A stretch of 64,000 nucleotides of DNA. Origin: Ginglymostoma cirratum. Its lineage: Eukaryota. The stretch spans positions 34,469,228-34,533,227 of the forward strand of contig JAHRHZ010000098.1 in assembly GCA_024137785.1 (NCBI GenBank), written 5' to 3'. The notes beneath the pieces are model-generated. The model did no database searches. It was not told the DNA's origin and worked only from the letters and a program-made list of their open reading frames with translations. Below are positions 1 to 60,672 of this stretch, one piece after another. Numbering within the stretch: the stretch's first letter is position 1; every line of letters starts with the position of its first letter. The translations under genes were made by a program, and so were the position numbers.

Positions 1-305
1 TTAAACTGATGGCCTTCACTGTCCAAATGTACTGATATTAAGGAGAGTTCGTCGTGCCATTTTGCTGCTGGATGATGTTCATATGTTTACACGGGAATTC
101 CGAGAGGCATGGTTCTCAACCCATAATGCAATCAACAAATGTACAGAGTTGGACCCCATATACAAATCCATACAGAACAAACCTGGAAATAATAGTACTC
201 ACCATAACAGACTGGACAGTATAAATTCCACGCGGAGTAGAAAAAAATCGCTTCATCAGAGACTCCACTGATGATGTCACCTGGCATGGTGACAAAACGT
301 CAGAG
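1..305 (+). mobile_element. Penelope-like element 3' fragment (GIY-YIG C-terminus + pLTR) with inverted 5' segment
   Basis: From ~88 the + strand reads TREFREAWFSTHNAINKCTELDPIY. 1-85 on the - strand reads TYEHHPAAKWHDELSLISVHLDSEGHQF. Both match the GIY-YIG peptide at 34926-35294. Confidence 0.8.
266..303 (+). ncRNA. Minimal type-I hammerhead ribozyme motif (family D, decayed)
   Basis: CTGATGA(268-274)-T-GTCACC/tggcat/GGTGAC-aAAAC-GTC. Perfect 6-bp stem II; G12 mutated to A at a CpG. Confidence 0.7.
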
Positions 306-309
306 GCGC

Positions 310-887
310 ATTTTAACCTTTTTTTTAAGAGCTTTTGAGACAGAGGTGATGAGTGGTCAGTTCCAAGGCAATAAAGTAAGTAGCTTGTGGGTTGGAACAG
401 TAGAAACAGCAAGCATAGGTGGAGCCAGGCTCCCACAGAACCAGGGTTTTGGTTTAGCTTTCAGTAGTTGCTGGGATCTTGAAGCTGGATGTTACAGCTG
501 TTATCCTTCTCTCTGTTACAGCTAAAAGCTGGGGTTCTCTTCCTGCTGCTAGAACTGCATGTGAGACAGTCTGTTTTACTGAATTTGCCTTTGCCAGGGT
601 GTGTTTATGGGATGTTACTACATTGGAACAGTTGCTGTTTAGTAGTTAAATAATCCATTATTCTGTTAAGTTTTCCAATAGAGTTAAATTATTCCAATTC
701 TTCTTTTTTTAGTTTGTATTTTAAGTACAGGGTAAGAATAAAGTGCATTTTGTTTAAAGCCAAGTAATGTCACCAATCAAATTACATCTGGGACACAGCA
801 TCCTACACCTGCTTTTAAACAAGAAAAAATTAGGGTCTAGGCTATCTCTTTGACACATTTGAAGGGGCTTTAGTTTAGTCTATGACA
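310..887 (+). mobile_element. Probable solo LTR (partial)
   Basis: Non-coding block with AATAAA (~737) and a ...TGACA end. Resemblance only; no second copy in the window. Confidence 0.35.
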
Positions 888-1475
888 GAAATAAGCCAGG
901 TGAAATTCAAAGTTCTTTTTGGCTCTGAATGTTCCTTCCTTAGAGACTCGTCAATATTGTACTACATGCACCTCACTGAAATGTGTTGGTGTTTTCCTTA
1001 CATATGTGTTCGGCCGAGAATTTAAGTATTGGAAATAAATGATCATTTCTTACGCCCTCACTAACATTCTTGGTTCATGTGAGATATCCAACCTGCAGAG
1101 TGGGGAAATGGTGTTGGCTCCACCATTGATTCCAGAATGTCGGGAGTTGTGTGGCCTGGGCATTCACAACAAGCATGCTTGTAAATAATGTCAATCTGAC
1201 CCATAACTGGTCTTAACACCATCACAAATTACCCAGTTATTAACTTAAATCCTTTGAAGATGTTCTGATTGATATATTGTCTGTCCTATTTATGCAGCAA
1301 TTCAGAATTGCTCATGGTGTTGGATAGTGACTATGAGAAAGCTCAATGTTTAAAAATATAAAATACAGAATGATTTCCATCGAAAGCCTCTGCTTTTACT
1401 CGCAAACATAGGCCTCGGTGTCATGTGTACAGCTAATAGCTCAAAATAGGTCATCAGCGTGCCTGGGACCTAGAC

Positions 1476-1596
1476 GGTTTAGGCCCAAAACGTCAGCTTT
1501 CCTGCTCCTCTGATGCTGCTTGACCTGCTGTGTTCATCCAGCTCTACACCGTGTTATCTCAGATTCTCCAGCATCTGCAGTTCCTACTATCTCTGA
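1476..1596 (+). mobile_element. Family A pLTR short element (hammerhead 5'-truncated)
   Basis: ggtttaggcccaaaacgtcagctttcctgctcctctgatgctgcttgacc...cctactatctctga; same family as 9629, 33626 and 56747. Confidence 0.85.
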
Positions 1597-1644
1597 AACC
1601 ACCATATCTATATGTGATGCAAACTTCGAAGAATTTGATTTGAT

Positions 1645-2790
1645 TTGACTTATTGTCACATGTACCTAAGTACAGTGAAAAGCTTTGATTATGAACACTA
1701 CAAGCATATCATAGTTAGCAAGGACATACAGATCACAGGGTGAAAAAAGCCTTGAACACAGGCATGCAGATGACATTGCGCGGGGGGTGCACTAGGCAAG
1801 ATCAACATTAGCAAGATCAGTATTATTTGAAGTTAGAGAGTCCGTTCATCAGTCTAATCATGGCAGGGAAGAAGCTTTTCTTTAAGCTGCTCTTGCATAT
1901 GTTCAAGCTTCTGTATGTTCTGCATGACGGAAGAGGTTGTAGGAGGTCATTCCTGGCGTGTGATGGGCCTTTGATGATGTTGGCTCCCTTTCCATGGCGG
2001 TGAGCCGTGTAAATGGAGTCCATGGATGGAAGGTTGGCTTCCATGATGGTCTGTGCACACCACCTTCTGTAGTTTCTTACAGTCCTGGGCAGAGCAGTTG
2101 CCATACCAGGCCATTATGCACCCAGACAGTATGCTTTCAATGGAGCATCTGTAGAAGTTGGTGAGGGACCTTATGGACATGCCAAATTTCCTGAGCCACC
2201 TGAGGAGGAAGAGACGTTGTTGTGCCTTCTTGGCTGTCACAACTACGTGGGAAGTCCAGGACAGGTTGTCAGTTATCATCACTCTGAGGAACTTGAAGCT
2301 CCCCACCCTCTCAACCTCCACTCCATTGATGTAGATGGGGATGTGTTTTCCTCCTTTCTTTCGGAAGACAATGATCAGTTCTTTAGTTTTGCTGATGTTG
2401 AGAGAGAGTTATCATTACATCACGTCACCAAGCCCTCTATCTCCTTCCTGTATTCTGCCTCATCATTGTTTAATATCTACCCTACCACAGTGGAGTCCTC
2501 AGCAAACTTGTAGATGGCATTTGTTTGGACTTTGGCAAGACAGTCATAGATGTACAGGGAGTACAGTAGAGGGCTGAGGATGCATCCTTTGGGGGGGGTG
2601 CTCCAGTGTTGAGTGTTATTGTGGAGGATGTGCAGTTACCTATCCTCCCTGATTGTGGTCTGTGGGTCAGAAAGCTGAGGATCCAGTTGCAGAGGGCGGA
2701 GCCGAGACCAAGGTTATGGAGTTTTGAGGTCAGTCAGGAAGAGATAATGGTATCGAAGGCAGCGCTGTAGTCGATGAGCAGGATTATGTA
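1645..2790 (-). mobile_element. Rex1/Babar-type LINE, 3' part of RT ORF (frameshifted) + 3' UTR
   Basis: VERVGSFKFLRVMITDNLSWTSH..KKAQQRLFLLRWLRKFGM..FYRCSIESILSGCIMAWYGNC, then LQPLPS..YRSL..LKKSFFP. Tail gcttttcactgtacttaggtacatgtgacaataa followed by (aatca)n. Confidence 0.85.
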
Positions 2791-2985
2791 CCTGAAACCC
2801 TAGGTCTTTCTGTTCTACAATACTGAACAAAGCCCTACTTTCAGTTGTAAAAGTCCTGCCCTTGTTTGTTTTACCAAAATGCAAACCTTGCATTTATTTA
2901 AATTAAACTCTATCTGCCGCTTTTCAGCCCATTAACCCAATTGATCAAGATCTCTTTGTAATCTTAGATAACCTTCGTCGCTGTC
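2790..2985 (-). mobile_element. CR1-type LINE RT fragment
   Basis: - strand encodes a WAEKRQIEFNLNKCKV-like motif, similar to WAQKWQMGINPNKCKV in ORF 56915-57169. Confidence 0.65.
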
Positions 2986-3406
2986 TCAATAATTCCCTGG
3001 TGCGTTCTCTCCACTAACCTGTTGATGAGACTTTTTTGCTTTATGTTTTGCTATTTACACTATTAAGCTTAGTGTGAGGTTTAACACCTCTCCCTGGAGT
3101 CTGCTGACATGTAACCTCTCAAATCACGACTGATGTAAACTGAGCAGTCACAGCTTTGGCTGTTAACCCTTTCATCCATGGAGCTGGGGAACTGGAATGC
3201 TGGTTGGCACCAGCTAGTTGCAGTTAGCTCGCGTGTGTGCTTCTGATTCTAGCAACAGCGCCACCTCAAAATCCGGTCCCACATTGAACATCAATGATCT
3301 TTCAGTTGAATTGGGGGATGTATGAGCTGGAGCAATTTCAAAACAAGTATAGAGACACACAAAACAGAGGAGGTGAGTCAGACCATTCTGTCTTTCCCCA
3401 CCTAAA

Positions 3407-3683
3407 ATCATAGTCATAGAGATATACAGCACAGAAACAGACCTCTCGGTCCGACTCATCCATGCTGACCAGATATTCTAAATTAATCTAGTCCCATTTG
3501 TCAGCATCTGGCCCAAATCCCTCTAAACCCTTTCTATTCATGTACCCATCCAGATGCCTTTTTTCAATGTAGTAATTGTACCAGCCTCCACCACTTCTTC
3601 TGGCAGCTCATTCCATACACACACCGCCCTCTGTGTGAAAAAGTTGCCCCTTAGGTCCCTTTTCAATCTTTCCCTTCTCACCT
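3407..3683 (-). mobile_element. CR1-type LINE 3' end
   Basis: catagtcatagagatatacagcacagaaacagacc tail plus a RGNFFTQR-type C-terminal motif. Confidence 0.8.
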
Positions 3684-3917
3684 TCGTTTGGCTACACTAC
3701 AACAACAACACTACTTTTGTTGACTGCTGCTTCAAGGCTGAACAGCTTGCTGAAAGACACATATTGGATTTTTCCTCTTTTTTTTAAGCTTTGGTGACAT
3801 CCAGTCTATTTTGCTCTTTATCTCGATGAGACAATGACAATCGATTAATGATGATAGAAAGGAGAGCTGACAATGGAGAATAAACAATTGTGTCGGAGTG
3901 TAATATTTCCCTAATAG

Positions 3918-4258
3918 GGGTGGTGATGGCCAAGTGGTATCATTGCTGGATTGTTCATCCAGAGACATTTGTAATTTTATGCGGACCTAGGTTCAACTCC
4001 TGCCACAGCAGAAGATGGGATTGAATTCAGTAATAATCCTGAGTTAAGAATCTAATGATGACCATGATTCCATTGCTGATTGTTGGAAAAATATCCCATC
4101 TGGTTCACTAATGTCCTTTAGGGATGGAAACTGCCAGCCTTACCTGATCTGGCCTACATGTGACTCCAGACCCACGGCAATGTGATTGATTTTTAACTGC
4201 CCTCTGGGCAGTTATTGCCGGTTTAGCCAGCAATGCCCAATCCTATGAAAGAATATTA
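3918..4258 (+). mobile_element. tRNA-derived SINE family 2
   Basis: A-box-like tggccaagtgg, B-box-like ggttcaactcc; body ccatctggttcactaatgtcctttaggg..ggcctacatgtgactccagacccac shared with 28633 and 41703. Confidence 0.85.
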
Positions 4259-4269
4259 AAAACAGATAA

Positions 4270-4410
4270 GAAAAACAGAGTGTGCTGGATAAACACTGCA
4301 GGCCTGGCAGCATTGGTAGAGGGAAAAAATAGTTAACATTTCGAGTCCAGTGACCCTAAAAGGGTTCTGATTGTTTCAGATTGCCAGCATTCGCAATTCA
4401 GTGTGTTTAT
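4270..4410 (-). mobile_element. Family B pLTR fragment (old)
   Basis: caggcctggcagcat..gttaacatttcgagtccagtgaccc matches family B. Confidence 0.65.
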
Positions 4411-4717
4411 TTGAGTGTAATATTTCCTTTTGGCTTCAGAGAAAACATCATTTCATGGGAGTACTTCCTGGATTGCTCAGCACACTGTTGTTCAGCAAAC
4501 TGATCAACAGCAGCTACTGCTGAAGCTTTTCAGGAGAATTTATTCCTCAGTACAAGATTCTCTTTGTAATTTTTGAGTTAAACTAAAAAGCCTTGGGAGC
4601 AAATTGGCTGCTGTGTTTCCTACATTAGAACAGTGACTGCGTTTCAGAAAGTGCTTTGTTCAGTGTGCAGTATGTTGCAATTTCCTGCTGTCTTGCAAAG
4701 CACTTTTCATTTACAAA

Positions 4718-5252
4718 GTCATACAGTGATACAGCAAGGAAACAGACCCTTTGGTCCAACAGGCCCATGCTGACCATAGTCCCAAACTAAACCACCTGTG
4801 CTTGGCTCATATCTCTCCAAACATTTCTTATTTTTGTACTTATCCAAATGTCTTTTAAACGCTGTAACTACCTGCATCCACCACTTCCTCTGGAAGTACA
4901 TTCCACATACGAACCACTTGCCATGTAAAAAAACAATGCCCCTCGTGTCTTTTTTTAAATCTTTCTCCTCTCACCTTAAAAATGTGACCCCTAGTCTTGA
5001 AATTCCCCATCCTAGGGAAAAGACACCTGCCATTCTCCTTATTAATACCCCTCATGATTTTATAAACTTCGATCAAGTCACCTCTCCACCTCCTACACTC
5101 CAGTGAAAAAGGTCCCAGTCTATCCAGCCTCTCCTTTTAACGCAAACCCTCTGTTCCTGTCAACATCCTGGTAAATCTCTTCTGAGCCTTCTCCAGCTTA
5201 AAAATATCCTTCCTATATCTGGGTGACCAGAACTGGACACAATACTCAAGAA
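4718..5252 (-). mobile_element. CR1-type LINE 3' end
   Basis: ORF MIEVYKIMRGINKENGRCLFPR..KTRGHIFKVRGERFK..FFTWQVVRMWNVLPEEVVDAG. Confidence 0.9.
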
Positions 5253-5391
5253 GATGTGTCTTTTTGTATACATATGATATATACACTTTTTTTTTAGAGT
5301 ATCTTTATAGAATCTTCCATTCTGTATTATCCACTACTTTGCATTATCAAGTTTCTTCTGATGTAAAAATAATTTATAGTAATGAATTGTC

Positions 5392-5490
5392 TTCTGAAGA
5401 AGTCATGTTACCGTGGAAATATTAACTCTATCTCTCTCCAAAGATGCTGCCAGACCTGCTGAGTTTCTACAGCATTAACAACGTTTGTGT
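5392..5490 (+). mobile_element. Family B pLTR fragment (decayed hammerhead)
   Basis: ttctgaagaag..gaaatattaactct..gatgctgccagacctgctgagtttc. Confidence 0.65.
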
Positions 5491-5531
5491 TCTGCTGCGT
5501 TGCCTAAGTTTGTAGTGAAGTACCTTACCTG

Positions 5532-5712
5532 AAGGGGCTGGTTTGCTGAGTTGGCTGGACAGCTGGATTGTGACACTAACAAGTGCAGATTCAATTCCTG
5601 CACTTGCTGAAGTTACCATGAAGATGTAACCCTTACAGTCTCATTCCTTATGTGAGGTGCAAGTGACCCTCAGTTAATTAGAGAGTGTGACAGTGGTGGC
5701 TTTATCTTTACT
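5532..5712 (+). mobile_element. tRNA-derived SINE family 3
   Basis: ggggctggtttgctgagttggctggacagctgg..ttcaattcc..gttaccatgaag; related copies at ~15910-16085(+), 37285-37505(-), 47545-47740(-). Confidence 0.7.
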
Positions 5713-5777
5713 TGTATGTTTCAGGCATTTTAACATGGCTCTATTTGGGACTGTCAAACTTTTTTTTAAAGAAAATA

Positions 5778-5942
5778 AACATAGAACATAGAACATAGAA
5801 CATAGAACAATACAGCACAGAACAGGCCCTTCGGCCCTCAATGTTGCGCCGCCCTGTGAACTAATCTAAGCCCATCCCCCTACACTATCCCATCATCATC
5901 CATATGCTTATCCAAGGACTGTTTAAATGCCCCTAATGTGGC
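5778..5942 (-). mobile_element. CR1-type LINE 3' terminus with (CATAGAA)n tail
   Basis: acatagaacatagaacatagaacatagaacaatacagcacagaacaggcccttcggccc. Confidence 0.85.
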
Positions 5943-6319
5943 CATCAGTCATCTTCTGTATTTGTGAATATTATTGCTGCTGTTCTCTGCACTGCACTAT
6001 TAATCATCATTGAGATAAATTCAGTGATAGATATGTCCATAGCAAGAAGTATAATGGTAGCATTTAATTTTACATTCGATGGCATTGTATGAACTTGGTG
6101 TGACTGAAGAAGTTACAGTGATAACGCACGCACTTTAATCTAGGAACATTTACAATCTAACTAAAATAGTTAGTGCAGAATGTATTGTGGTTCCATGTGC
6201 CACATTTAATTTCTTTGTGCCAATTAATTCTCCGATAATCGTAGGAACATGAGAGCAGAAGTAGGTCATTTGCCCCCTTGAACCTGCTTTGCAATTCAGT
6301 GAGATGATGGGGAAGTGAC

Positions 6320-6620
6320 AGTGTTGTGGAAATGCCATTGAACTATTAATCCAGAGCACTGGGCAAATTTTCAGGGGCACAAGTTTGAATCCCACCATAG
6401 CAAATTGTGAAATTTCAATTCAATGAAAGCTGGAATGTATGTAACAACTGATGATTTTTTGTTTTAATCTGCCTCACAAATGTCCTTTAGGGAAGGAAAT
6501 CTGCTATCCTTACCTGGTCTGGCCTACATGTGACTCTGGTCCCATAGCAATCTGGTTGACTCATAACTGCCCTCTAAAATGGCTTAAAGCTTCAAGTAGG
6601 TCAATGGCATTGGGGCCAAA
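6320..6620 (+). mobile_element. SINE family 2 (diverged)
   Basis: aatgtcctttagggaaggaaatctgctatccttacctggtctggcctacatgtgactc. Confidence 0.75.
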
Positions 6621-7000
6621 TGCCAGCCTTGAGGTATGGAGAAACAGTCCACGCCAGCCAATTTCGTTTGAGTATAAAATCACTGAACTTGAAGGAGTTT
6701 CAGAGGTTGGAAATTAAAAGGGGTGTGAAATGGTGCTCAGATTTACTAATTGTGCAAATATGCACACACTTAGCAGTGGCCCACACTAAAACGCTAAGGG
6801 CTGGGGTGTTGACAATTTGCTCGGATTGGATTGCCGTGCTGTGCATCTTTTGAAAGTTGTTCTTAGTTTGCTCACATCTTCATAGTGAAGGTCGCTTAAC
6901 CACCATGCAACACAAAGGGAGAGGGCATCACCTTCAACATTCAACAACCTGTACTCAAAGCCCCAGTGGAATTCAAACTCTGGAAAAGTGCTACATACAA

Positions 7001-7440
7001 ACATAAGAAACAGGAGCACAATTCATCCTTTGGAGCTTGCTCTAACATTCACTAAGGTCGTGACTGATTTGTTTGGGGTTTTGAATTCCACATTTCCATC
7101 TTCTACGATTCCACACGAATCTATCAGCCTCTGGAAAATAAATATTTATGACGCCACTTTCACTGCCTTCTAAAGCAGGGAGTTCCAAAGTCACACAGCC
7201 CACTGTGTGAAAAAAGTTCTCATCTTTGTCATTAAAGGGTGACCCCTAATTTTCATGCTTCCTTCTTCTGGACTGACCCACAAGATATATATCCTTTCCT
7301 CGGACACTTTGTTAAGACCTATCAGGATTGTATACACTTTGCCCCTCTCTCTACTAAACTCTATTGAAAACAAGCCTAATCTGTCCAACCTATCCTCATT
7401 ACACAACCCACTCATTCAAAGGATCAATCTAATCTATCTA
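7001..7440 (-). mobile_element. CR1-type LINE 3' end
   Basis: ORF EDRLDRLGLFSIE..VYTILIGLNKV..RGHPL..RTFFTQ. Confidence 0.8.
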
Positions 7441-8104
7441 TTAGTCACTATTGCGCAGGATCAAAATAACCTGTAAGTTCTCCATCCTATAATGTCTTTT
7501 ATCACCTCAATGGTTCCTGCTTTGATATTATCATTCACCTTTCACCAATCCACTCGATGGGGGCACCCATTGAATTCATTTCTCAAAACAGTTACATCAA
7601 CTGGACTTTCGGTATTTATTCTCAATTTCTCTCTCCTTTTGACAACTTTGCAAAATCGAGTTAAAATTCACTTTTTATTTAAAGTGCAGAGCTGCGAAAA
7701 CTGACGTGAAAGAAAACCAACAAAGCTGACATTAGCCTGAGGCATTTTCTGAAGTGTGGATGAATGTCACAAGCAATTGAAACTGAGATGAGGCTAGAGC
7801 TGGCTGTGACTGTGAGTAACTGACGATGGCTTTAGTTTTGCAATACTGGGAGGATCTTGCCTGTGTCCTTCCCTTACCAACTTGGCTAAACAATTGCCCT
7901 CATGTTTAGCTTAAACAATTAAAACACCAGTCCAGAGCAGCAGGATTTCAACGGGTCCATATTTTTATGGTTGTGAATTTCCAAAGTTGTCACCAGTTTC
8001 TGGAAACTGACAGTGAGTCCTGATTTCGGCACATGGGCAATTCAATGTGCAGATCCAGAAGCTGCTTGTCAGTAATTATCTGCTCCTCCTCAGGGTGCAC
8101 TTTG

Positions 8105-8660
8105 CTTTCTCATTCCTTCATGGCGTGTGAACTCAACTAGCAAGCCCTGTAGTTGTTGCTCTTAAGAAGGTGGTGGTGAGCAGCTTTCTTGAACTGCTGT
8201 CATCCTTTTGGTGTAGGGACACTCTTAGTGGAGGCTCTTCCAGGATTTTGAGAATATTGAAGGCACAGTGATATAGTTCTAGGTCAGGATGGTGGGCGAC
8301 TTTCAGAGAAATTTACAAGTGGCTGCGTTCACATGCATTCATTGTCCTTCTCCTTCTGGCTGGTAGAGATGATAGGCTAGGCAGGTACTATCAAATAAGA
8401 GATAACACAGTGCGGAGTTGGAGGAACACAGCAGGTCAGGCAGCATCAGAAGAACAGAAAAGCTGACATTTCGGGTTGGGACCCTTCTTCAGAAAAATGC
8501 TATCAAATAAAGCTTGACAGGTTGATGCAGTGAAGCTTGTACGTAGGACACACTGCTGCCATTATGTGTCAGTCTAGGGTTAAGTTAACATCAAGATTAT
8601 TGGACGGAGTGCAGATGCAGCAGGTCGCTTCGTCCAAGATGGTGCCAATTTTTTTTTGAA
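8105..8660 (-). mobile_element. CR1/L2-superclade LINE family 2, 3' fragment (interrupted by a family A insert)
   Basis: aaggtggtggtgagcagctttcttgaac..ccaggattttg..gtcaggatggtg shared with 30305, 42050 and 54238. Confidence 0.7.
8399..8499 (-). mobile_element. Family A hammerhead element with TSD
   Basis: TSD ctatcaaataa at 8388-8398 / 8500-8510; - strand CTGAAGA-A-GGGTCCCAACCC-GAAATGTC. Confidence 0.85.
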
Positions 8661-8807
8661 TGTCACCATAACCTTGAGTAATGTCTCAGCAGATGACAGT
8701 TTTAATAAGTCTCTGAAGTGAGGAGAACTTTCCCACTTCAAGACACAATATAGCTGTTAAAACCCCTGAAAATACACTTTATTTCTAGTGTGCAGCCTTC
8801 TTTTTCC

Positions 8808-9262
8808 TTTATTCATTCATGGGACAAAGGCATCACAAACCACCCCAGGATTTATTGCCCACCCTTAACTACCCAGAAACAAGAGCAGAAATTGCTGGAA
8901 AAGCACAGCAGGTCTGGCAGCATCTGTGGAGAGAAAGCAGAGTTAACGTTTCGGGTTCAGTGACCCTTCCTTAATTACCCAGGGGGGCAGTTAAGAGTCA
9001 ACCACATTCCTGTGGGTCAGAAGTCACATATGGGCCAGATCATGTGAGGACAGCAGATTTCCATCTCCAAATGGGTGTTAGTGAACCAGATGAGTTTTTA
9101 CAACAACCAACAATAGTTACATGATTATCATTAAGCCAGCTTTTCGTTTTAAGTTCCAGATTTGTATTGAGTTCAAACTTCACCATCTGCCATGGTGGGA
9201 TTCTCAAACCCATAACCCCTGAAATGTGAGTATAGTGACATTACAACCAGGCCACCGCTTCC
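8808..9262 (-). mobile_element. SINE family 2 containing a family B insert
   Basis: SINE body on - strand; insert 8877-8968 flanked by ccttaactacccag / ccttaattacccag. Confidence 0.8.
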
Positions 9263-9628: not shown

Positions 9629-9727
9629 TTTGATTTCTGAAGAAGGGTCCCGACCTGAAATGTCAGCTTTCCTGCTCCTCCAATGCTGCCTGGCCTGCTG
9701 TGCTCCTCCAGCTCCACACTGTGTTAC
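9629..9727 (+). mobile_element. Family A hammerhead element
   Basis: CTGAAGA-A-GGGTCCCGACCT-GAAATGTC (9637-9664); imperfect TSD gccaaagggatc / gccaaatggatc. Confidence 0.85.
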
Positions 9728-10118
9728 GCCAAATGGATCACTTTGCAGGCAGTTTTATCTTAGGTCAGAGGTGAACCCCTGTGAACTCTGTCTATAACGC
9801 AATTCTGATCATTTCTACCCGCTTTCCAGATGTCAGTCATGTTACTTTAGGAGACTGGGCTGTGATGTAGTTTTCCTAGGGTAAAACATCACTGCCAGTA
9901 TGATGTGGTCTGAGCACTTCCTTTATATGCTAGTCGATCCAACATATACCATGAAGTCTGGGTTCTTGTTGAGACAGGTGTCTTGAAGTTTATTAACAGC
10001 ACTAACTATGTACACTGATATGATACTACACACTTACCTGTAGTCCAGTTTCTATGCTTATATCACTGTTACATTAGAAGCATGACTGATTCGTTGACTA
10101 ACAGACCAACTGACAAGC

Positions 10119-10262
10119 ATCGGAGGAGCAGGAAAGCTGATGTTTCGGGTCCAGACCTGAAACGTCAGCTTTCCTACCCCTCTGATGCTGCCTGGCCTGC
10201 TGTGTTCATCCAGCTCCACACTGTGTTATCTCAGATTCCAGCATCGGCAGTTCCTACTATCT
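10119..10262. mobile_element. Family A hairpin element with TSD
   Basis: Inverted arms meet at gtttcgggtc-ca-gacctgaaac; TSD cagaccaactgac(a/g)agc at 10102-10118 / 10263-10279. Confidence 0.85.
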
Positions 10263-13940: not shown

Positions 13941-13942
<2 letters not shown>

Positions 13943-17554: not shown

Positions 17555-17830
17555 TTGTTGGATGCTGGAAATCTCAAATATAAACAGAGAGTTCTAGAGA
17601 AACTCAGCAGGTCAGGCAGCACCTGTGGAAAGAGAAACAGAGTCTGCGTTTCACGTTGATAAACTACTTATGAGGTCTTGCTATAAAAATAGCTAAACCA
17701 AATTAAATTTGCCCAGCTGTCATCAGTTCTGAAGAAGGATCACTGGACCCGAAAATTTAACTCTGATTTCTCTCCACAGATGTTGCCAGATCTGCTGAGC
17801 CTTTCCAGCAACTTCTGCTTTCGTTTCTAA
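17555..17830. mobile_element. Two family B pLTR pieces in inverted orientation
   Basis: - arm 17555-17670; + arm from ~17724: agtt-CTGAAGA-A-GGATCactgGACCC-GAAAATTT-aact. Confidence 0.75.
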
Positions 17831-25309: not shown

Positions 25310-25412
25310 ATCAAAAACAGAAGTTGCTGGAAAAGCTGAGCAGGTCTGGCAGCATCTGTGAAGAAAAAAATCAGAGTTAGTGTTTCGGTCTGGTGACCCT
25401 TCCTCAGAACTC
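25310..25412 (-). mobile_element. Family B hammerhead element
   Basis: - strand gagtt-CTGAGGA-A-GGGTCaccaGACC-GAAACACT-aactc (5-bp stem I). Confidence 0.85.
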
Positions 25413-26599
25413 ATCCCATCTTGTCCTGCACATTATTCGTGCCTAACTCTATCTGTTTGGTTTGCTGCGTGACTCCCCAGGCATCTGTCTGTAAACTCAT
25501 TACATTTATACAGACCTTATTTTCATTCTGCCTTCAATAACTAGTGCTTGTAATTCTGTATCATGATACTTTAATCCTTTTTTGGATTACAGCAGTATTT
25601 CAGCATTAAAGCCTGATCTAAAATGGGATTACACTCTCTTTTTGGATGTTTCACTGAGCCCTCAATTGAAGAAACATTCTGAACCCATGTAGATTGTTGT
25701 CATTCTATATCGTTACAGTGACAAAACCCTTCATGTTGTGCGATTTGTGAAGTCACTCATTGCAGGCATGACCACAACCAGAAACCACATCTGACGGCCA
25801 ATCAGTTGTTACAAATTCTTGAAACTCAGTCATTCTCAGATGAATGGAACATCTACGTTGCTGAAACCCGTTAGCAGTTCGAAGTCAGGTCAGCATTGAT
25901 AATGGCCACAGCTGTCCAACAGCAGACTGCCCTCTGAGAAGGAAAAACAACGGTAGAGTGCTTGATAATAGGTGCAAAGAATCAGATGGATAGATTTCTT
26001 TTCGAACGATGGAACCATTTCATTTATCAGCCAGAACCATTTATATCACAGTAGAAAAGATGATCGCACAATCTAGTAGGACACTTTGTCGCATGTTTCG
26101 TTGCATTATGGTGCTTTCTCCATTAGAAATGCATAATACTACTTGCGAACAAATACAAGAGGCTTGTCAGTATAACTGATTAGTATAAACCGCCAACAGG
26201 GAAGCCATTAAGATCAAAGTGGACAGAACTAGAAGACTTCAGAGGATTTTAGGGACAGAAATGGTCGTAGAGACAGGGACAGCCAAACCAATGTAAGGCT
26301 AAGGTTCACCTTTCAGGTCTACAAGATACTTTTATTTCCCTTTATAGTCCAGGCTCCACCTTGTTTTTCTGCTATTGTCAACTTTTGCTCTCACACGTTG
26401 CATACCTGATAGCGCTACATTGTCCCAGGTGTTTGTGATAACTAAACCACGTCAGTGAGTACTGACGAGGGATTAGATCATGGAAAGACCATAAAATGCT
26501 TAAAATGCTTTCTAAAACACGTGTCACTTGCTAAAAATGTTAAATAATGAGCCTGTTTTTTTTTCCTGACTCCAGTACAGAGCTCCTGGAGTAATGTGT

Positions 26600-27649: not shown

Positions 27650-29190
27650 CTAAAATGAAACAAAGAACTGCAGATGCTGGAAATCTGAAACAAAAGCAGA
27701 AATTACTGGAGAAACTCGGCAGGCCTGGCAACATCTGCGGAGAGAGAAAAAACAAAATTATCACTTCGAGTCCTGTGACCCTTCTTCAGAACCAATGGCA
27801 TCTGGGAAAAAAATGGTATTCTTGAGAGAATGAGAAGAGTGGATAAATAGATACAGAGCCAGAAAGAGGGAGAGAGGAATAGAGGGATTGTTGATAATGA
27901 CCCAGGGAAGAGAATAAGTGATATAGTTGATAATCGGAACTATGAGTGGGTGAAAATGGGTTGATTGGGCTGAACACAACTCATATCATGAAAGGACCTC
28001 GGGTGTGAGGGTGGGTAAAAGACATGGAAGACGGTGTTCAGGCTCTAAAGTTATTGAACTCAAGATTGAGTCTGAAGGTTGTGAGGTCCCCAGACAGACA
28101 ATGTGATGCTGTTCTTCCAGCTTTCGCTGAGCTTCACAGAACACCGCAGGAGACATGGCGATAAGAATAGTTAGGTAGCTGAGTTTGACCATCACGGATG
28201 GGATGTGATACCTAATGGTGATGTTTGCCATAGATCTCTATGATTCTATGAGATTGAAATGTTGGTATGGGAACATGGTGGTGTGTTGAAGTGGCAGGCA
28301 ACTGGAAGTTCAAGGTCATTTTTACAGACACAACGTAGGTGTCTTGCAAAGCAGTCACCCAGTCTGCATGTTCTGCCCCCACTTCAGAGGAGACTGTGTT
28401 GCGGTCAGTCAGTACAGTAGGCTAGATTGAGCGGAGTGAAGGAAAAGTTGTTGCTTCACCTGGAAAGTGTGTCTGGGACCCTGGATAGTGGGGAGGGAGG
28501 AGCTACATGGACATGTGTTGCAACTTTGGCGACTGAATGGGAGGTGCCATGGGAGTGTAGGAGGTGTTGGGAGTCGAGGAGGAGTGAATCACGGTGTCCT
28601 GGAGGGAATGGTCCCTGTGACAGCTGACAAGAGGAGGTGATGGCCAGGTGGTATTTTTGCTGGACTGTTCATCCAGGGACCCAGATAAAGTTCTGGGGAC
28701 CCGGGTTCGAATCCAGCCATGGCAGACGGTGGAATTTGAATTCAATAAAATATCTGGAATTAAGAATCTAATGATGACCATGAATCTATTGTCGATTGTT
28801 GGAAAAATCCATCTGGTTCACTCATCCCCTTTAGGGAAAGAAACTGCCATCCTTACCTGGTCTGGCCTACATGTGACTGCAGACCCACAGCAATGTGCTT
28901 GACTCTTAACTGCCTCCCTGGGCAATTAGGGACGGGCAATAAATGCTGCCTGGGCAGCGATGCCTTCATCCCATGAATGAATAAAGGGCAAAAAAGGAGA
29001 GGAATGAGTGTCCAATGATAGCGTTCGGCTGATGTGCTGGAAATGCCAGCTTATGATCCTTTGCATGTGGATGCTAGTGAGGTTGTGAGTGAGGACCAAG
29101 GGTATCCTGTTGCTATAGTGGTAGGGAGGAAAAGGGTTGAGACAATTAGTGTGGGAGATGGATCAGGCACAGTCAAAGGCCCTGTCCACC
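27650..29190 (-). mobile_element. Decayed Penelope-like retroelement (linker + GIY-YIG + family B pLTR)
   Basis: - strand, frameshifted: RIPLVLTH..SIHMQRII..TIQGPRHTFQVKQ..RLGDCFARHLRCV.KNDLELPVACHFN..EAQRKLEEQH..LGT.QP. Followed by a family B pLTR at 27650-27792. SINE inserted at 28633. Confidence 0.8.
28633..28985 (+). mobile_element. SINE family 2, well-preserved copy
   Basis: B box GGTTCGAATCC; tail gggcaattagggacgggcaataaatgctg..catcccatgaatgaataaa. Confidence 0.9.
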
Positions 29191-30121: not shown

Positions 30122-30240
30122 CGAGGGATGCTGGAAAGCTGAAACAAAAATAACAATCACTGGAGAGGCTCAGCAGGCCTGGCAACATCCATGGGGGAGA
30201 GTAGAGTTAATGTTTTGTGTCCAGTGACCCTTTCTCAGAT
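30122..30240 (-). mobile_element. Family B pLTR fragment
   Basis: ctcagcaggcctggcaacatc..gagttaatgtttt..ccagtgacccttt. Confidence 0.7.
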
Positions 30241-33375: not shown

Positions 33376-33478
33376 AGACAAAAACAGAAGTTGCTGGAAA
33401 AGCTCAGCAGGTCTGGCAGCATCTGTGGAGAGAAAGCAGAGTTAACGTTTCAGGTCGAGTGACCCTTCCTCAGAACTG
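33376..33478 (-). mobile_element. Family B hammerhead element
   Basis: - strand agtt-CTGAGGA-A-GGGTCactcGACCT-GAAAACGTT-aact. Confidence 0.85.
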
Positions 33479-33625
33479 AGTCTGATTTCTCTCTATTTTT
33501 CCATTAATTTTAATTTCCATTAATTCTAATTTCCATCTGTAGAGTTGTACTTGAGAATGTAGCTCACTGCCACTTGCAAAAAGGCAGTTAAGGATGGGTA
33601 ATAAATGCTGCCCAACTTCTAGAAA

Positions 33626-33722
33626 AATTTCTGAAGAAGGGTCCCGACCTGAAACGTCAGCTTTTGCTCCTCTGATGCTGCCTGGCCTGCTGCATTCCTC
33701 CAGCTCTACACTGTGTTATCTC
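33626..33722 (+). mobile_element. Family A hammerhead element
   Basis: Contains the motif at 33631-33658 followed by the family A body. Confidence 0.85.
33628..33661 (+). ncRNA. Minimal type-I hammerhead ribozyme motif, core intact (family A)
   Basis: ttt-CTGAAGA-A-GGGTCccGACCT-GAAA-C-GTC-ag; all conserved core nucleotides present, GUC cleavage triplet. Confidence 0.7.
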
Positions 33723-35294: not shown

Positions 35295-36071
35295 TGTGTG
35301 CAGTTTGGGTTCCTTATCTGAGGAAGGATGTTCTGCTTATGGGGGATAATGCAGCAACGGTTTTAGTAAACCAAGTCCTGGGATGGCAGGACTGATAAAT
35401 GAAGTGAGACTGGATTAGATAGGACGATATTCACTGGAGTTTAGAATAATGAGGGGGATCTCTTGGAAATCTATAAAATTTTCACACGGCTAGACAGGTT
35501 AAAACCATGTAAGTATATTCACGATAACCAGGGAGTCCAGAACCAGGGCTCACAGTCAACGGACAAGGGGTAGGCCATTTATGACTGAGATGTAGAAAAT
35601 ATCTTCACTCAGAGACTGGTGAGCCTGTGGAAAATCTCTGTCACGGAAAGCGGTTGAGGCCAAAATATTGAATGTTTTCAAGAAGGAGTTAGGTCTAGAT
35701 CTTAGGGCTAAAGAGATCAAAAGATATGGAGAGAATGTCTGAACAGGAGACTGAGTTGGATGATCAACCATGATCATATTGAACGTGGAGCAGGTTTGAA
35801 GGGCCGAATGGCTTACTGCTGCTCCTGTTTTCTATGTTTCTATGTTTCATCTCTCGTGTTGTAAACCAGCTAGGCCATTGGACCCAATATAAGAAGAGGA
35901 TCATTAGCATCACTCCATTCCAAATGTCATCTGGAAGCAGTTGGTTCCACAACACACATAGCACAGCAGAGCTGAATAAATACAGGGAGCTCCTAAAGAC
36001 TTCAGAGCTGAACACACTGGGATTCTTTTATCCAGGAAGGAGAAGGCTGGAAAGTCTTTAAAATAATGAAG

Positions 36072-36250
36072 ATAACACAGTGTGGAACTGGAGGAACACA
36101 GCAGGCCAGGCAGCTTCAGAGGAGCAGGAAAGCTGACGTTTCGGGTCGGGACTCTTCTTCAGAAATGGTGCTGCCTGGCCTGCTGTGTTCCTCCAGCTCC
36201 ACACTGTGTTATCTCAGACTCCAGAATTGGAGTCTTACTATCTTACTATC
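36072..36250. mobile_element. Family A hairpin element with 17-bp TSD
   Basis: TSD tctttaaaataatgaag at 36055-36071 / 36251-36267; - strand core CTGAAGA-A-GAGTCccGACCC-GAAACGTC (36135-36162). Confidence 0.9.
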
Positions 36251-45278: not shown

Positions 45279-45380
45279 TGTGGAAATGCCGGTGTTGTCA
45301 GATGACAAAGGAGCAGCGTTCCGAAAGCTTGTGATTTCAAATAAACCTGTAAATAATCTGGTGTCATGTAACTTCTGACC
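45279..45380 (+). mobile_element. Family C hammerhead-type element with TSD
   Basis: aTGACaA-A-GGAGCagcGTTCC-GAAAGCTT-gtga; TSD aaatttta(a/g)atga at 45266-45278 / 45381-45393. Confidence 0.8.
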
Positions 45381-45818: not shown

Positions 45819-45935
45819 TAGGATCCTGACCTGAAACGTCAACTTTCCTGCTCCTCTGATGCTGCCTGGCCTGCGGTGTTCATCCGGCTCCACACTGTGT
45901 TATCTCTGACTCCAGCATCAGCAGTTCTTACCACT
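45819..45935 (+). mobile_element. Family A element
   Basis: gacctgaaacgtcaactttcctgctcctctgatgctgcctggcc..ttatctctgactccagcatc. Confidence 0.85.
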
Positions 45936-47853: not shown

Positions 47854-48423
47854 TCAGAGATAAAAGGTACTGCAGATGCTGGAGAATCCGAGATAACAAG
47901 CATGGGGCTGGATGAACACGGCAGGTCAAGCAGCATCATAGGAGCNNNNNNNNNNNNNNNNNNNNNNNNNNNNNNNNNNNNNNNNNNNNNNNNNNNNNNN
48001 NNNNNNNNNNNNNNNNNNNNNNNNNNNNNNNNNNNNNNNNNNNNNNNNNNNNNNNNNNNNNNNNNNNNNNNNNNNNNNNNNNNNNNNNNNNNNNNNNNNN
48101 NNNNNNNNNNNNNNNNNNNNNNNNNNNNNNNNNNNNNNNNNNNNNNNNNNNNNNNNNNNNNNNNNNNNNNNNNNNNNNNNNNNNNNNNNNNNNNNNNNNN
48201 NNNNNNNNNNNNNNNNNNNNNNNNNNNNNNNNNNNNNNNNNNNNNNNNNNNNNNNNNNNNNNNNNNNNNNNNNNNNNNNNNNNNNNNNNNNNNNNNNNNN
48301 NNNNNNNNNNNNNNNNNNNNNNNNNNNNNNNNNNNNNNNNNNNNNCGGGTCTAGGCCCGAAACGTCAAGTTTTCCTGCTCCTACGATGCTGCTTGACCTG
48401 CTGTGTTCATCCAGCCCCATGCT
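47854..48423. mobile_element. Young family A inverted-repeat element spanning the assembly gap
   Basis: Inverted arms on both sides of the Ns; exact TSD tgaaccaaaatgaa at 47840-47853 / 48424-48437. Confidence 0.85.
47946..48345. other. Assembly gap (400 N)
   Basis: Read directly from the sequence. Confidence 1.
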
Positions 48424-50329: not shown

Positions 50330-50735
50330 AAAAAGCAGAACAGAAAATTACTGGGATATTCAGCAGGTCTGGCAGCATTTGTGGAGTGACACATTGAGTT
50401 AATATTTCAAGTTGTGATCACCGTTGATCAGAACTGAGGAAACATGGTACTTTATTTAGTAGGTAGAGTAGGAGAGAGGGGGCAGGAAGAACAACAACAG
50501 TCAGTCTGTGATTGTGTGCAGCAGGGAGAGATTAATTCACAATATTTGTCTTGGTTTAAAAGCCTAAGGAAGATTAAAGGGACAGGTAAGGGAACCAAAG
50601 ATATGACTAGACAATGTGTGAATGGTAGGTTAGCAGCCACCCAGATGCAACAAGAAGGAGTAGGAAAGACATAATAAAAAATAAATTAACAAAGAAAGAG
50701 GAAAATGGAGGCAGAGGTCATGATCTAAAACAAAT
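50330..50735 (-). mobile_element. Old family B pLTR with upstream Penelope 3' UTR
   Basis: tcagcaggtctggcagcat..gagttaatatttc..atcagaact, then a purine-rich stretch like 27790-28060. Confidence 0.6.
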
Positions 50736-53005: not shown

Positions 53006-53011
53006 ATGGCA

Positions 53012-54100: not shown

Positions 54101-54237
54101 TACTTATGAGGAAATATTGGATCTCCTTTAAAGGGGACAATGGAAAAGAATTATGAGGCTGGTATAAAGTGTGCACATGAGCTGAATAACCAATATGTGT
54201 TCAAATTTCATTCTGAATAAATGACTGGAAGGTTCTC

Positions 54238-54560
54238 TTTATTCAGCCTTGGAATGAAGGTGTCGCTGGCTGGGCCAACGTTTATTGTCCATCCCTAATT
54301 GCACATGAGAAGTTGGTGGTGAGTGCGTTCTTGAACAACTACAGTTTTTGGGATGGAGGGACTCCCATAGTGCTCGTAGTGGGGGGCAGTTCCAGGATTT
54401 TGACCCAGCGACTCTAAAGGCACAGTGACATGCTTCCAAGTTAGGATAGTGAGTAGCTCGGAGGGGAACTTGCAGAGGGAGGCTTTCCAATGTATCTGCT
54501 GCTCTTGTCCTTCTGGATGGAAAAGATGGTGCATTTACGGGGTGCTGCCTTGATGGTTGG
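54238..54560 (-). mobile_element. LINE family 2 3' end
   Basis: Tail tttattgtccatccctaattgc shared with SINE family 2. Confidence 0.7.
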
Positions 54561-56486: not shown

Positions 56487-56656
56487 AATGTGGGGCACCA
56501 GTGTCGGACTGGGGTGGACAAAGTCAGAAGTCGCATGACACCAGGTTATAGTCCAACAGGTTTATTTGAAATCACAAGCTTTCATAGCAGGAACAGTGCT
56601 CCGAAAACTTGTGATTTCAAATAAACCTGTTGGACCATCAGCTGGTATCGTGTGAC
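56487..56656. mobile_element. Family C hairpin element with 10-bp TSD
   Basis: gtccaacaggtttatttgaaatcacaag / cttgtgatttcaaataaacctgttggac; TSD ttttgtttac at 56477-56486 / 56657-56666. Confidence 0.85.
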
Positions 56657-56679
56657 TTTTGTTTACGGTATTGACTTTG

Positions 56680-57848
56680 TAGTATATATAAATGATCTGG
56701 AGGAAAATGTGGGTGGTCTGATAAGCAAGTTTGCTGATGACACCAAAGATAAAAGGTACTGCAGATGCTGGAGAATCCGAGATAACAAGCATGGGGCTGG
56801 ATGAACACAGCAGGTCAAGCAGCATCATAGGAGCAGGAAAGCTTGACGTTTCGGGCCTAGACCCTTCACCCGAAACGTCAGCTTTCCTGCTCCTATGATG
56901 CTGCTTGACCTGCTGTGTTCATCCAGCCCCACACCTTGTTATCTGCTGATGACACCAAGACTGGTGGAGTTGCTGATAGCGCCAACAATTGTGAAAGGAT
57001 ACAACAGGACATAGATAAATTGGCAACTTGGGCACAGAAATGGCAAATGGGGATTAATCCAAACAAATGCAAGGTGGTGCATTTTGGAGGATCAAGTTTA
57101 GGCGTGAATTATATTTTAAATGGCCAACGCCTTAGGAACACAAACATTCAGATAGATCTGGATGTGTAAGTCTACAGTTCCCTGGAAGTGGCAACACAGG
57201 TGGCCAAGGTGATTAAGAGGGCATATGGCATGCTTGCCTTCAGTGTCTGGGGCATGGAGTACAAGAGTTGGTGAAACATGTTGCAGCTATATAAAACCCT
57301 TGTTAAGCTGCATTTGGAGTATTTTGTGCAGTTATGGTCACCACACTACCAGAGAGACATGGAAGCTTTAGAGAGAGTACAGAGAAGGTTCACCAGGATG
57401 TTGCCTGGTTTCCAGGGCATTGACTGTAATGAAAGGTTAAAAAAACTAGGATTATTTTCACTGGAAAGATGGCAGCTGAGTAGAGACCTGATAGAGGTCT
57501 GCAGAATTATGAGAGGCATAGATAGGGTGGATAGTCAGAGGCTTTTTCCCAGGGTTGAAGTTTCAAATACAAGGGGGCACAGGTTCAAGGTGAGAGGGGG
57601 AAAGTTTAAGGGAGATGTGCGAGGGAAGTTTTTCACGCAGAGAGTAGTAGCAGCCTGGAATGCGCTACCAGAAGACGCGATGGAAATGGGCACATTGAAG
57701 ACATTTAAGAGGCATCTGGATGGGTACATGAATAGGGAGGGAATAGAGGGATATAGACCAAAAAATGACAAGTTTGTTTTTAGGGCATGGTGGTCAGCAT
57801 AGGATTGGAGGGCCGAAGGGTCTGTTCCTGTTCTGTACTTTTTCATTT
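56680..57848 (+). mobile_element. CR1-type LINE, RT C-terminal region to 3' end (stops present)
   Basis: YINDLEENVGGLISKFADDTK..WQMGINPNKCKVVHFG..LYKTLVKLHLEYFVQLWSPHY..RGKFFTQRVVAAWNALP. Confidence 0.95.
56747..56943. mobile_element. Young family A hairpin element inserted at the CR1 FADD motif
   Basis: Exact 15-bp TSD tgctgatgacaccaa at 56732-56746 / 56944-56958; inverted arms. Confidence 0.92.
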
Positions 57849-57877
57849 GTTCATTTGTAGGGAAACCTATAACCTGA

Positions 57878-57976
57878 TTTCCTGCTCCTATGATGCTGCT
57901 TGACCTGCTGTGTTCATCCAGCCCCATGCTTGTTATCTCGGATTCTCCAGCATCTGCAGTACCTTTTATCTCTTAT
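57878..57976 (+). mobile_element. Young 5'-truncated family A element
   Basis: Direct repeat acctgatttcctgctc at 57872-57887 / 57977-57992. Confidence 0.9.
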
Positions 57977-59509
57977 ACCTGATTTCCTGCTCTGCATGGC
58001 AACGCGAAACAAAATAACCTTACATGCAGGTAGAAATTCTAACTAGCTTTCCTTGATCCCAATTTCCTTTCAGTTTAGGAGTATATTTAAAGTACAACTA
58101 TTTACAACCTAAGTCCAGCAATGCCATTCAGGGTGTTTGGGAAACTTAGTGTCTCAATGTCAATTCAGAGACTGCTGCCATTCTCTAATTCCTTGCATCT
58201 TCTAAGCCTCCCTTTGTTCTCTAATAACCAGATCCTCCCAGGCTTACTGTCAGGCTAATGTCAACACAGGTCACAATGATACGTTCCCAAAGTATAATAA
58301 TCTGATAAACCCCTCAGTCTGAATAAGCATTTCCCAGTGAGAATTGAAAAATCTTGTTAATAGGACCAATGCATTTCAATAGTCTTGTTATAACCACTCA
58401 CTCCGAGGTGCTCAGTGTTTTCATTAGCACTAATCTGCAAGGCCCTAGCTTCTCAATATATGTGAATAACTAACCAACATTTTTTCTTTAATATTTAACA
58501 CCTCTGATTATCTTTGTTAATAACAGGCACTTCTCCGACACAAAGGTTTGGGGAATGTGTAATTTATATTATAATTTCTATCTGGCATTAAGGCAATGGC
58601 ACCGTTAGTTATTTAAGAAAAAACTTATTGCTGCATCTCCTGCTTTTGTGTAAAATATAATCAGTGTAGCTCAACGTAATATGGAGAATTTAGAGCGCTG
58701 ATTGGAGATTTTTGCTGCTAACGTGTGCTTCACAGGCATCAATCCTGAATCACCACTGTAGAGAAAAATGACCAACAAATGCACTGTAAATCTTCCATTT
58801 TTTTTAAACTGGCGTGGGAATATGGATCAGTTTGCAGCATTCAGAAGAAAAATTGCCCACCATCTTTTAACAGTCCCCAGCATCGCAGCAACAGCAGCTC
58901 TGCCATGTTGAACATATTGATTTAAATTAGGCTGAAAGCTTTATGTGTTCAAGGGGGTACATTGTATGGTTGATTCATAGTTAATTGATTGTAAATGTAG
59001 CCTATTAAAATTTTATGTTGGCTAGCCTGGTTTTGCTGTCTAAGTATTTGTCTATTCCTTCTGTTTATATTTTGGTAATGTACTTTAGTCTGTTCCGGAC
59101 TTTCCATTTTATTGAGTCGTCTAACACCACAGTCCTTTACTGGTTGCAGCCCTCTGTGGAGAACTGCTGCCAGGTCTTCATCAATAATTCTGTGAAGTCA
59201 TTGCTTTGTCCCACAATTTATCTCTGCCTCCTTCTCCTGGCTGGAGGTGGACTGCCAACTGATAATGATGTATCAGAGCTCATCTTGGGGAAGAAAGAGG
59301 GGAGTTACTCACTCATCAGGTTACCATGGAATCACACAGCATCTAAGGTCATTCAGTCTGGCCTACCTGTACTCACCCATTGAAGAGGGTCCACCCACCT
59401 CCCTGTTTTTTCCCCATAACCCTTCTAGAGAAACTATGAAGTTCTGAAGAAGGGGTCACTGAACTCCATACATTAACTCTGTTTTCCCTCTAGCAGATAC
59501 TGTCAGGAG

Positions 59510-59967
59510 AATCCTTACAGTGTGGTAGCAGGCCATTTTGCCCATTGAGCCGACACTGGCCCTCCAAAGAGCATCCCGTCCAGACCCAGTTCCCTTTCCT
59601 ATCTCTGTAACTCTGCATTTACCATTGTTAATTGGCCTAACCTACACACCATTGGACACAATGGACAATTTAGCATCAGAGATAATAGGTGCTGCAGAAT
59701 CCAAGATAACAAGGTGTGGAGCTGGATGAACACAGCAGGTCAAGCAGCATCATAGGAGCAGGAAAGCTTGATGTTTCAGGCCTAGACCCTTCATCAGAAA
59801 TCATGGCCAATCCACATATCTTTGGGCTGTGGGAGGAAACCCACACAGACGCAAGGAGAATGTGCAAACTCCACACAGACAGTTACCCAAGGATGGAATC
59901 GAACCCGGGTCCCTGGCGCTGTGAAGCAGCAGTGCTAACCACTGAGCCACTGAGCCACTGTGCCACC
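59510..59967 (-). mobile_element. V-SINE / HE1-like SINE containing a family A insert (59677-59801, -)
   Basis: SINE ggacaatttagcat|ggccaatccac is split by the insert, which carries CTGATGA-A-GGGTCTAGGCCT-GAAACATC on the - strand. Confidence 0.85.
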
Positions 59968-60493
59968 CTAAAGTTTCCTCCAGCAATTTGTGACTTTGTT
60001 TGTTTCAGAGCTTCATATCCGCAGTTCTCTATTGTGTTATACCCTGAATGTTTTACCTTATATTTTGTCAGACGGAGAGTTTTACAATTATGTTAGAGTC
60101 TTAACTAGTGTATCGATGGTTTTAATTGTTTAACTGTAGATAAAATTTGCTTATTTGTAATAAATAGTAATTTGAGTGCGGAAACCTGGGCCATGTTTTC
60201 TGACAACCTAAGTCTAAAGGCGGGTAATTTGAGGAATTACATACATTTTACAATCTTTAAGTTATGTGATGGCTCCAGGAATAGTGAAGCTTAATTTCCA
60301 GCACTACATCTCAATGAGGTGTAACACTGCACCAAGTCTGATACCTGTAGGTGCCATTGTTTTAGGTCAAACCTTGACTAGAACAGTCTCCTTGATGAGT
60401 CAGTGCATAAAGACAACATTGGGGGACTATCGAACTGTGTTAACCTGGAGACCCCCAGCTCGATCACTAATGTCTGCTCAGTTAGCAGACCTG

Positions 60494-60672
60494 ACGCCAG
60501 GTAATTGTCCAACAGATTTATTTGAAATCACAAGCTTTCATAACTCCTCCTTTGTCAAGTGACCCCCTGACAAAGGAGGAATGCTCCAGACGCTTGTGAT
60601 TTCAAAGAAACCTGTTGGACTATAATCTGGTGTCGTGCTTGTCCAGGCCAGTCTAACACTGGCACGTCCACA
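60494..60672. mobile_element. Family C hairpin element
   Basis: Inverted arms meet at cctttgtcaagtgaccccctgacaaagg. Confidence 0.8.

Follow-up and report, generated by a model that had tools for sequence, protein, structure and literature searches.

Minimal hammerhead motifs at decayed ends of Penelope-like elements in a 64-kb stretch of the Ginglymostoma cirratum genome

A 64,000-nucleotide stretch of the Ginglymostoma cirratum genome (assembly GCA_024137785.1, contig JAHRHZ010000098.1, positions 34,469,228 to 34,533,227), which we call the window, contains four families of repeated motifs, A to D, that an earlier sequence-only reading had credited with one and the same minimal type I hammerhead ribozyme (HHR) fold. 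What are these repeats, and what does their common fold stand for? Our analysis very probably identifies them as decayed, 5'-truncated pseudo-long terminal repeat (pLTR) ends of Penelope-like elements (PLEs) that belong to at least three lineages and carry the known minimal type I hammerhead, for which cutting is predicted in pairs of motifs only.

The motif was counted at two scales. Our sample comprised 1,264,000 bases, 941,721 of them non-N (about 942 kb), and was made up of the window with 200 kb on either side and of 80 segments of 10 kb each, taken at round coordinates from six contigs. In the entire genome (4.36 Gb), pattern counts were compared with a reversed-pattern control. A family-blind descriptor with three requirements, namely CTGANGA, GAAA and a stem II no shorter than 4 bp, yielded 102 matches in the 942 kb of non-N DNA, compared with 0–5 in five shuffles. 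Although the offset was left free, 94 of these 102 matches have exactly one extra base after A9, as had been read from the window, and 55 continue with a Watson-Crick palindrome followed by U16.1. Genome-wide, the core-intact pattern with G10.1, C11.1 and CG at 15.2–16.2 matched 108,962 times, its reversed control 63 times. Of the families, A has by far the most copies. The core of family C, which had to be reconstructed from decayed copies, proved to be correct (224 exact genome matches against none in the control), and we found a fifth family, E, with 269 genome matches and none in the control (for example L213:1494–1536, minus strand). Position 17 is variable in otherwise intact C motifs, being mostly U and also A, G or C. 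A G at this position is expected to block hammerhead cleavage.

Every family lies downstream of PLE reverse transcriptase (RT) and/or GIY-YIG coding sequence, so that the motif families are pLTR ends of PLEs, and the proposed identity as minimal PLE hammerheads was right. For family A, a 492-aa RT-endonuclease frame (with HIDD in this copy) ends about 270 nt upstream of the motif at locus L054. For B, two broken RT-endonuclease frames lie in inverted orientation 44–48 kb beyond the downstream end of the window, and a B motif terminates each of them. A GIY-YIG fragment precedes the C motif in locus L089, and a C-type motif was present in 21/21 loci pulled by or situated beside this fragment, several of which also show RT similarity. 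The D frame at window positions 35336–34926 has at least 150 close relatives; longer D copies contain an RVT_1 domain (Pfam), YVDD and a GIY-YIG motif, and their frame runs into the hammerhead motif. Family E is PLE-linked as well. GIY-YIG was recognised by its motif in the translated frames, as Pfam left the endonuclease (EN) unnamed and a PDB search of it gave no significant match. In C elements at four loci (L259, L265, L271 and L272) we noticed long (CA/CT)n-rich tracts between the open reading frame (ORF) and the pLTR.

The four motifs are real; they do not, however, represent four independent families, as A and B are related. Their DNA profiles merge, the downstream pLTR sequence is common to both, and their ORF proteins are 47–57% identical, while the C and D proteins are about 25–32% identical to the A protein over RT-containing matches. 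Profile merger and protein identity argue for three deep lineages rather than four: judged by sequence similarity, A, B and E form one, next to C and D. A CX4CxxC linker before the EN, of the CX2-5CxxC type that Neptune elements have between RT and EN, was seen in B and C; it is degenerate in the one A copy inspected (P0003) and absent in D. From this linker motif only, A, B, E and C would be assigned to the Neptune clade and D to Penelope/Poseidon (PMC8557442). The EN+ PLEs described there are likewise truncated at the 5' side, with an inverted 5' copy and with a tail at one of their ends. A, B and E also have in common a conserved block with a short hairpin-like stretch, 25–75 nt downstream of the cut site, which is a candidate for an RT recognition or start structure.

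Since MAFFT failed to align the stems of 10 representatives correctly, base pairs were counted by script on a core-anchored alignment of nine subfamily consensuses. All nine contain the core CUGANGA ... GAAA ... UH, the pair G10.1-C11.1 and a stem II of 4 bp or more; standard pairs occupy 86 of 90 cells, the D2 consensus being built from 2 copies. A fifth stem II pair in A is not physical, since it would leave a loop of 2 nt. The claim that stems I and II differ in sequence and yet stay complementary is borne out for stem II and for most of stem I, which has 4–5 bp in B, E, C and D1 and 3 in D2 (n=2). It fails for stem I of family A, where only two (A1: U-A, U.G; A3: U-A, U-A) or three (A2) weak contiguous pairs, all of them U-A or U.G, precede a mismatch. 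Double changes also separate close relatives, namely B and E at I.2 and II.2, C1 and C2 at I.4, and D1 and D2 at I.3 and II.3; for the D pair in stem II, the matches listed include copies that carry the intermediate G.U. In stem I and palindrome, C arms can pair only with C and D arms only with D. At locus L005, 348 nt separate a B motif (~4636, minus strand) from an A motif (~4288) on that strand, where an A element has landed behind a B pLTR. Pairing of the B 5' arm with the A1 3' arm would be possible, and mixed A/B dimers are thus conceivable.

The fold that is evident in the consensuses is lost in most individual copies of the window. The four families are present where they had been reported, with semi-global gapped scan scores above those of block-shuffled nulls. 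Alignment of every copy to one family representative gave 32 copies (15 A, 10 B, 5 C and 2 D); an additional weak B copy near 50431 appeared in the gapped scan only and is not among the 32. A search for the core alone turned up 13 CTGANGA...GAAA sites. The catalytic core is kept in 8 of the 32 copies (5 A, 3 B) and in none of the C (5) or D (2) copies. Core, palindrome and the first four stem II pairs are combined in two copies, 33631+ and 33473-, both of which have G.U in place of G10.1-C11.1, and none of the 32 retains every hammerhead feature. The former belongs to the best A copy of the window (33627–33718, plus strand), a short copy with intact core and ACGT and a stem I of 2 bp; the latter to the best B copy (33398–33479, minus strand), equally short and intact in core and ACGT, with a 4-bp stem I. 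Only one of seven copies tested folded better than its shuffles. The segment 33620–33670, which had been proposed as a cleavage construct, is a poor choice: it is a decayed A copy with the weakest stem I and folds no better than shuffles. In the suggested Rfam check, the window yielded no hammerhead at E<=10, and Hammerhead_1 (RF00163) matched 0 of 74 genome candidates. These misses are uninformative, because the model needs stem III and the control genomes matched nothing either.

Both D copies of the window still show their origin. The D1 copy is a 5'-truncated PLE (35336–34855, minus strand) in which the GIY-YIG C-terminal frame mentioned above is followed by the minimal hammerhead, with C3 at 34929 and with A9 and U16.1 mutated. 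In the D2 copy (92–304, plus strand), the end of a PLE endonuclease frame precedes the motif, which begins at 266 and has its C3 at 268 and G12 changed to A. Its inverted partner lies just beyond the window, with an intact core on the minus strand and its C3 about 222 nt upstream. The D2-type motif (window 266–304; L240:1495–1540, minus strand) is close to two Clonorchis sinensis rows in Fig. S3 of Cervera and De la Pena 2014 (PMC4209133). By eye, core and extra base are the same, and the arms of stems I and II are near-identical. This likeness could reflect deep conservation, convergence or transfer.

Stem III is, as described, a palindrome without a loop in all family consensuses, reading ACGT in A, B and D and AGCT in C; that of E is ACGT. 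The sequence-only reading had taken the exchange between the two forms as support for selection on dimer pairing. This proposal has the right direction, in view of a published alignment, and carries no statistical weight in the window or the genome. ACGT/AGCT is one swap among three deep lineages, and such a swap is weak evidence (about 1 in 3 by chance), because three of the nine double changes possible from CG are Watson-Crick palindromes. In inserted copies, the palindrome decays like other CpGs: in A, 36 of 188 stem III cells differ compared with 37 of 187 at other CpGs, and in B 31 of 106 compared with 71 of 212. Copies with a TA palindrome match the outcome of double CpG deamination, without selection. 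Genome-wide, matches with other dinucleotides at 15.2–16.2 exceed their controls (A-start, 2,115 vs 207; G-start, 3,865 vs 180, about two thirds of them GC among the first 100 listed; T-not-G, 1,444 vs 92). Judged by eye, the first 100 listed matches of each of the A-, G- and T-start classes were C or mutated A–E and included no further families, the CA/CC/CT and TG classes lying outside this count; the first 100 listed matches with a base other than A at 9.1 likewise contained mutated A–E only. The proposal survives because the alignment in PMC4209133 offers replicates. In its Fig. S3, 41 of 56 rows are loop-less motifs, and 40 of these 41 are palindromic in four states (CG 29, GC 5, UA 5 and AU 1, next to one non-palindromic CA; counted by eye from machine-read text). 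On this comparison, selection for dimer pairing is very likely the right explanation of the palindrome change.

We then asked where the copies begin. Starts were counted from C3, in A and B in copies at 80% identity or more (170 A and 85 B). They fall at -8 to -1 in 56 of the 170 A and 44 of the 85 B copies (binomial p ~1e-30 for the pile-up against an even spread over -59 to 60); 13 of 26 C copies start at -10 to -2, and a few D starts lie near -11 to -21. The cut site shows no excess of starts (per 8 nt, 8 vs a background of 8.9 in A and 3 vs 3.7 in B). Long copies have a TATA-like hexamer about 30 nt ahead of the pile-up, at -35 in 4/5 A, -33 in 2/2 B, -35 to -39 in 5/9 C and -48 in D2 (the one D1 copy does not match the pattern), and an initiator-like match is found at -4 in 7/7 A and B references; both motifs were chosen by eye and are unscored against any null. 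An inverted partner adjoins 30 of the 56 short A copies and 19 of the 44 short B copies. The flanks of the remaining 26 A and 25 B copies (4 of which contain N, with at least one B flank being continuing element sequence) are shared with no other copy, and we therefore rejected unrepresented upstream subfamilies as the source of the pile-up. In head-to-head pairs among the 170 A copies, a tail is present on exactly one member in 35 of 35 cases, which is a known PLE signature (PMC8557442, PMC11167929).

These ends suggest a role for the hammerhead that we put forward tentatively and regard as somewhat less probable than its negation, namely that it is the first structure of the PLE mRNA and that its gated cleavage serves as a lineage-specific switch on the element's RNA rather than as a processing step required for insertion. 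In the Neptune-like families, a TATA/initiator-type promoter at the end of the upstream copy would start transcription 4–7 nt ahead of the core, and the 5' arm of stem I would consist of the RNA's first few nucleotides. The abundant copies of 100–130 bp would then be run-off cDNAs from uncut RNA, resembling strong-stop products, and dimer- or protein-gated cleavage would take off the cap together with some 30 nt. The lineage specificity of such a switch would follow from the exclusive pairing of C with C and of D with D. It is possible, on the other hand, that the pile-up stems from stalling of the polymerase. The promoter of D. virilis Penelope is reported to be internal and TATA-less (PMC2377424), which is at odds with a universal TATA-start rule. 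A narrow search of the open-access literature, by titles and the openings of abstracts, found no work that treats PLE copy starts as RNA starts. If it is true that the census of 5' ends reads the transcription start, the role of the PLE hammerhead would become testable at precisely predicted positions.

How would pair-only cutting work? Selection probably acted on active master elements and not on the copies seen here. In the master transcript, two motifs would swap strands, with stem I and the 4-nt palindrome pairing between the copies, a pairing in which the element's protein probably assists. Most insertions would be copied from uncut RNA. Copying would begin downstream of the core, at a distance of about 95 nt or of 125 nt and more, and would often run off the 5' end of the RNA, which would sit a few bases ahead of the core. 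By nearest-neighbour energies, the active dimer reaches -17 to -26 kcal/mol in B, C, D1, D2 and E, and only -2 to -3.5 kcal/mol in A1 and A2. Several observations weigh against our main reading. In the calculations, which ignore core contacts and Mg2+, the active dimer is never favoured over two folded monomers or alternative dimers; such modelled energies are to be taken as a caution and not as a test of cleavage. A direct tandem of pLTR, ORF and pLTR from one family, which would be the natural setting of a dimer in cis, was not found among 43 intact motifs in the 942 kb. The true assignment of stem arms to each other is the best of 24 permutations for four families (39/40) and the best of 6 for three lineages (29/30), but these tests are weak, with best possible p values of 1/24 and 1/6, and swapping the A and B arms still scores 37/40. 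In A copies, divergence is lower in the core (2.4%) than at downstream sites (5.1%; p=0.0003), a difference absent in B. This contrast is confounded by subfamily differences and alignment selection; it is still unlike pure neutral decay from one master. Finally, HHR mutants of the Anolis element had no effect on insertion in vitro (PMC11167929).

The latter result also bears on an alternative to cleaving dimers, in which the masters keep the motif as a protein-bound or promoter-proximal structure or as a monomer stabilised by protein, and in which the palindrome is a 15.2–16.2 pair forced by the protein instead of a dimer interface. The most abundant family, A, has the weakest stem I, and copy starts do not accumulate at the cut site, both of which would suit such a structure. 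A hairpin loop of zero nucleotides is impossible within one strand, however, so that the 15.2/16.2 pair cannot close there. The published record speaks for either side. The motif of the Anolis Poseidon element cleaves only with the element's protein, its cleavage is dispensable for insertion, and no RNA-seq read starts or ends at the cut site (PMC11167929). Single motifs of S. mansoni, in contrast, remain uncleaved while dimers and trimers cleave weakly (PMC4209133), and a review (PMC6765202) states cleavage as dimers, crediting Lunse et al. On balance we consider the protein-bound alternative unlikely.

Fixed 5' and 3' ends and a very high copy number could also mark the short copies as an independent non-autonomous family, similar to short interspersed elements (SINEs) or retrozymes, whose members would all be working ribozymes. 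Retrozymes that descend from PLE pLTRs have been reported, one cartilaginous fish included (10.64898/2026.07.22.740005). But tandem motif arrays were found neither in the window nor in the 942-kb sample, and the short copies match the pLTR of long copies minus the upstream TATA-like box and are decaying, which makes this origin quite improbable. As for the fold itself being a product of chance or of the reader's bias, that is, of DNA palindromes and CpG effects in unrelated repeats, we give it practically no credence. The single well-folding copy among seven, the failure of Rfam to match any and the capacity of CpG decay to yield a TA palindrome are what such an explanation would predict. Yet the same 12 core bases occupy the same place in three lineages with such distant proteins, and features outside the search pattern emerged unprompted. 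The family-blind descriptor, the genome counts and the stem covariation rule chance out. The reading that we prefer thus remains that of decayed PLE ends with a hammerhead predicted to act in pairs.

Every feature noted in the window has already been described, and both the motif and the palindrome swap have been published for other animals. Covariation between families, the extra base, the G10.1-C11.1 pair and the palindromic stem are all claimed as original results in the discussion of PMC4209133. Like the motifs reported there, those found here are of type I, lack loop 3, have an extra base between 9 and 10.1, the G10.1-C11.1 pair and a palindromic 15.2–16.2, occur as several covarying consensus families per genome, and are mostly solo copies or opposite-strand pairs. 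Fig. S3 of that paper includes a turtle GCUU motif that resembles family C. Unlike there, the copies number about 109,000, compared with some 4,000–9,000 in coelacanth and Xenopus, although the search rules differ, and stem I of family A is shorter and weaker than the usual 4–5 bp, even if 2-bp cases are present there too. The available Table S1 and Fig. S3 of PMC4209133 contain no shark or ray, and the literature as available to us names no case among sharks and their relatives except the one cartilaginous fish of the 2026 retrozyme preprint, to which supplementary files might add some. To a class known since 2014, our findings add only a further host group and five families of motifs.

The Poseidon element PAc of Anolis carolinensis (Frangieh et al. 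2024, PMC11167929) similarly combines an RT with a C-terminal GIY-YIG and an HHR at the pLTR. As here, a tail separates two copy 3' ends in PAc, and there is evidence for an uncut RNA template. The ORF of PAc starts inside stem II. PAc was tested biochemically, in contrast to the families of the shark, which are known from their sequence. The non-LTR retrozymes of Li et al. 2026 (10.64898/2026.07.22.740005) have type I HHRs related to PLE pLTRs, as is the case here, and differ in forming head-to-tail tandem arrays. The pairs B/E, C1/C2 and D1/D2 and the lineages with ACGT and AGCT provide natural material for swap-and-rescue experiments on the dimer model.

The other copies of the window illustrate the modes of decay. 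CpG decay has removed the palindrome from three A copies with an intact core (8403–8495, minus strand; 9633–9726, plus; and the A2 copy at 59708–59801, minus), whereas on the plus strand one A copy is truncated within the core (1476–1556), another is truncated (45830–45901) and an A2 3' fragment lacks the HHR (57878–57926). Among the B copies, an old B-like one (5394–5466, plus) combines an intact core with a TA palindrome, due to double CpG decay, and a broken stem II. On the minus strand, the core is truncated at 4291–4357 and damaged at its 5' end at 8899–8974, U16.1 is missing at 25331–25414, and the copies at 27719–27792 and 30172–30239 are decayed, as is the one at 59440–59486 on the plus strand. 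A single C copy (45303–45379, plus) has an intact AGCT and a damaged core.

Other copies form head-to-head pairs. In the A pair at 36073–36210, the minus copy has core and palindrome and a single stem II mismatch; a second A pair (47903–48419) spans a stretch of 400 N, and a third (10116–10228) lacks the 5' half of the core and has its junction within stem II. Both members of the A2 pair at 56792–56940 are truncated inside the HHR. The plus copy of the B pair (17600–17796) has kept its core. Of the two C pairs, one (56515–56661) has its junction within the HHR and the other (60497–60637) has damaged cores in both members. The junctions at 10116–10228, 56515–56661 and 56792–56940 all lie in or at stem II, which suggests that the stem II hairpin favours the inversion point. 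Apart from the PLEs, a frame at 1947–2408 on the minus strand matches Pfam ALKBH8_N; this frame and the one at 57275–57802 on the plus strand resemble C-terminal fragments of long interspersed elements (LINEs).

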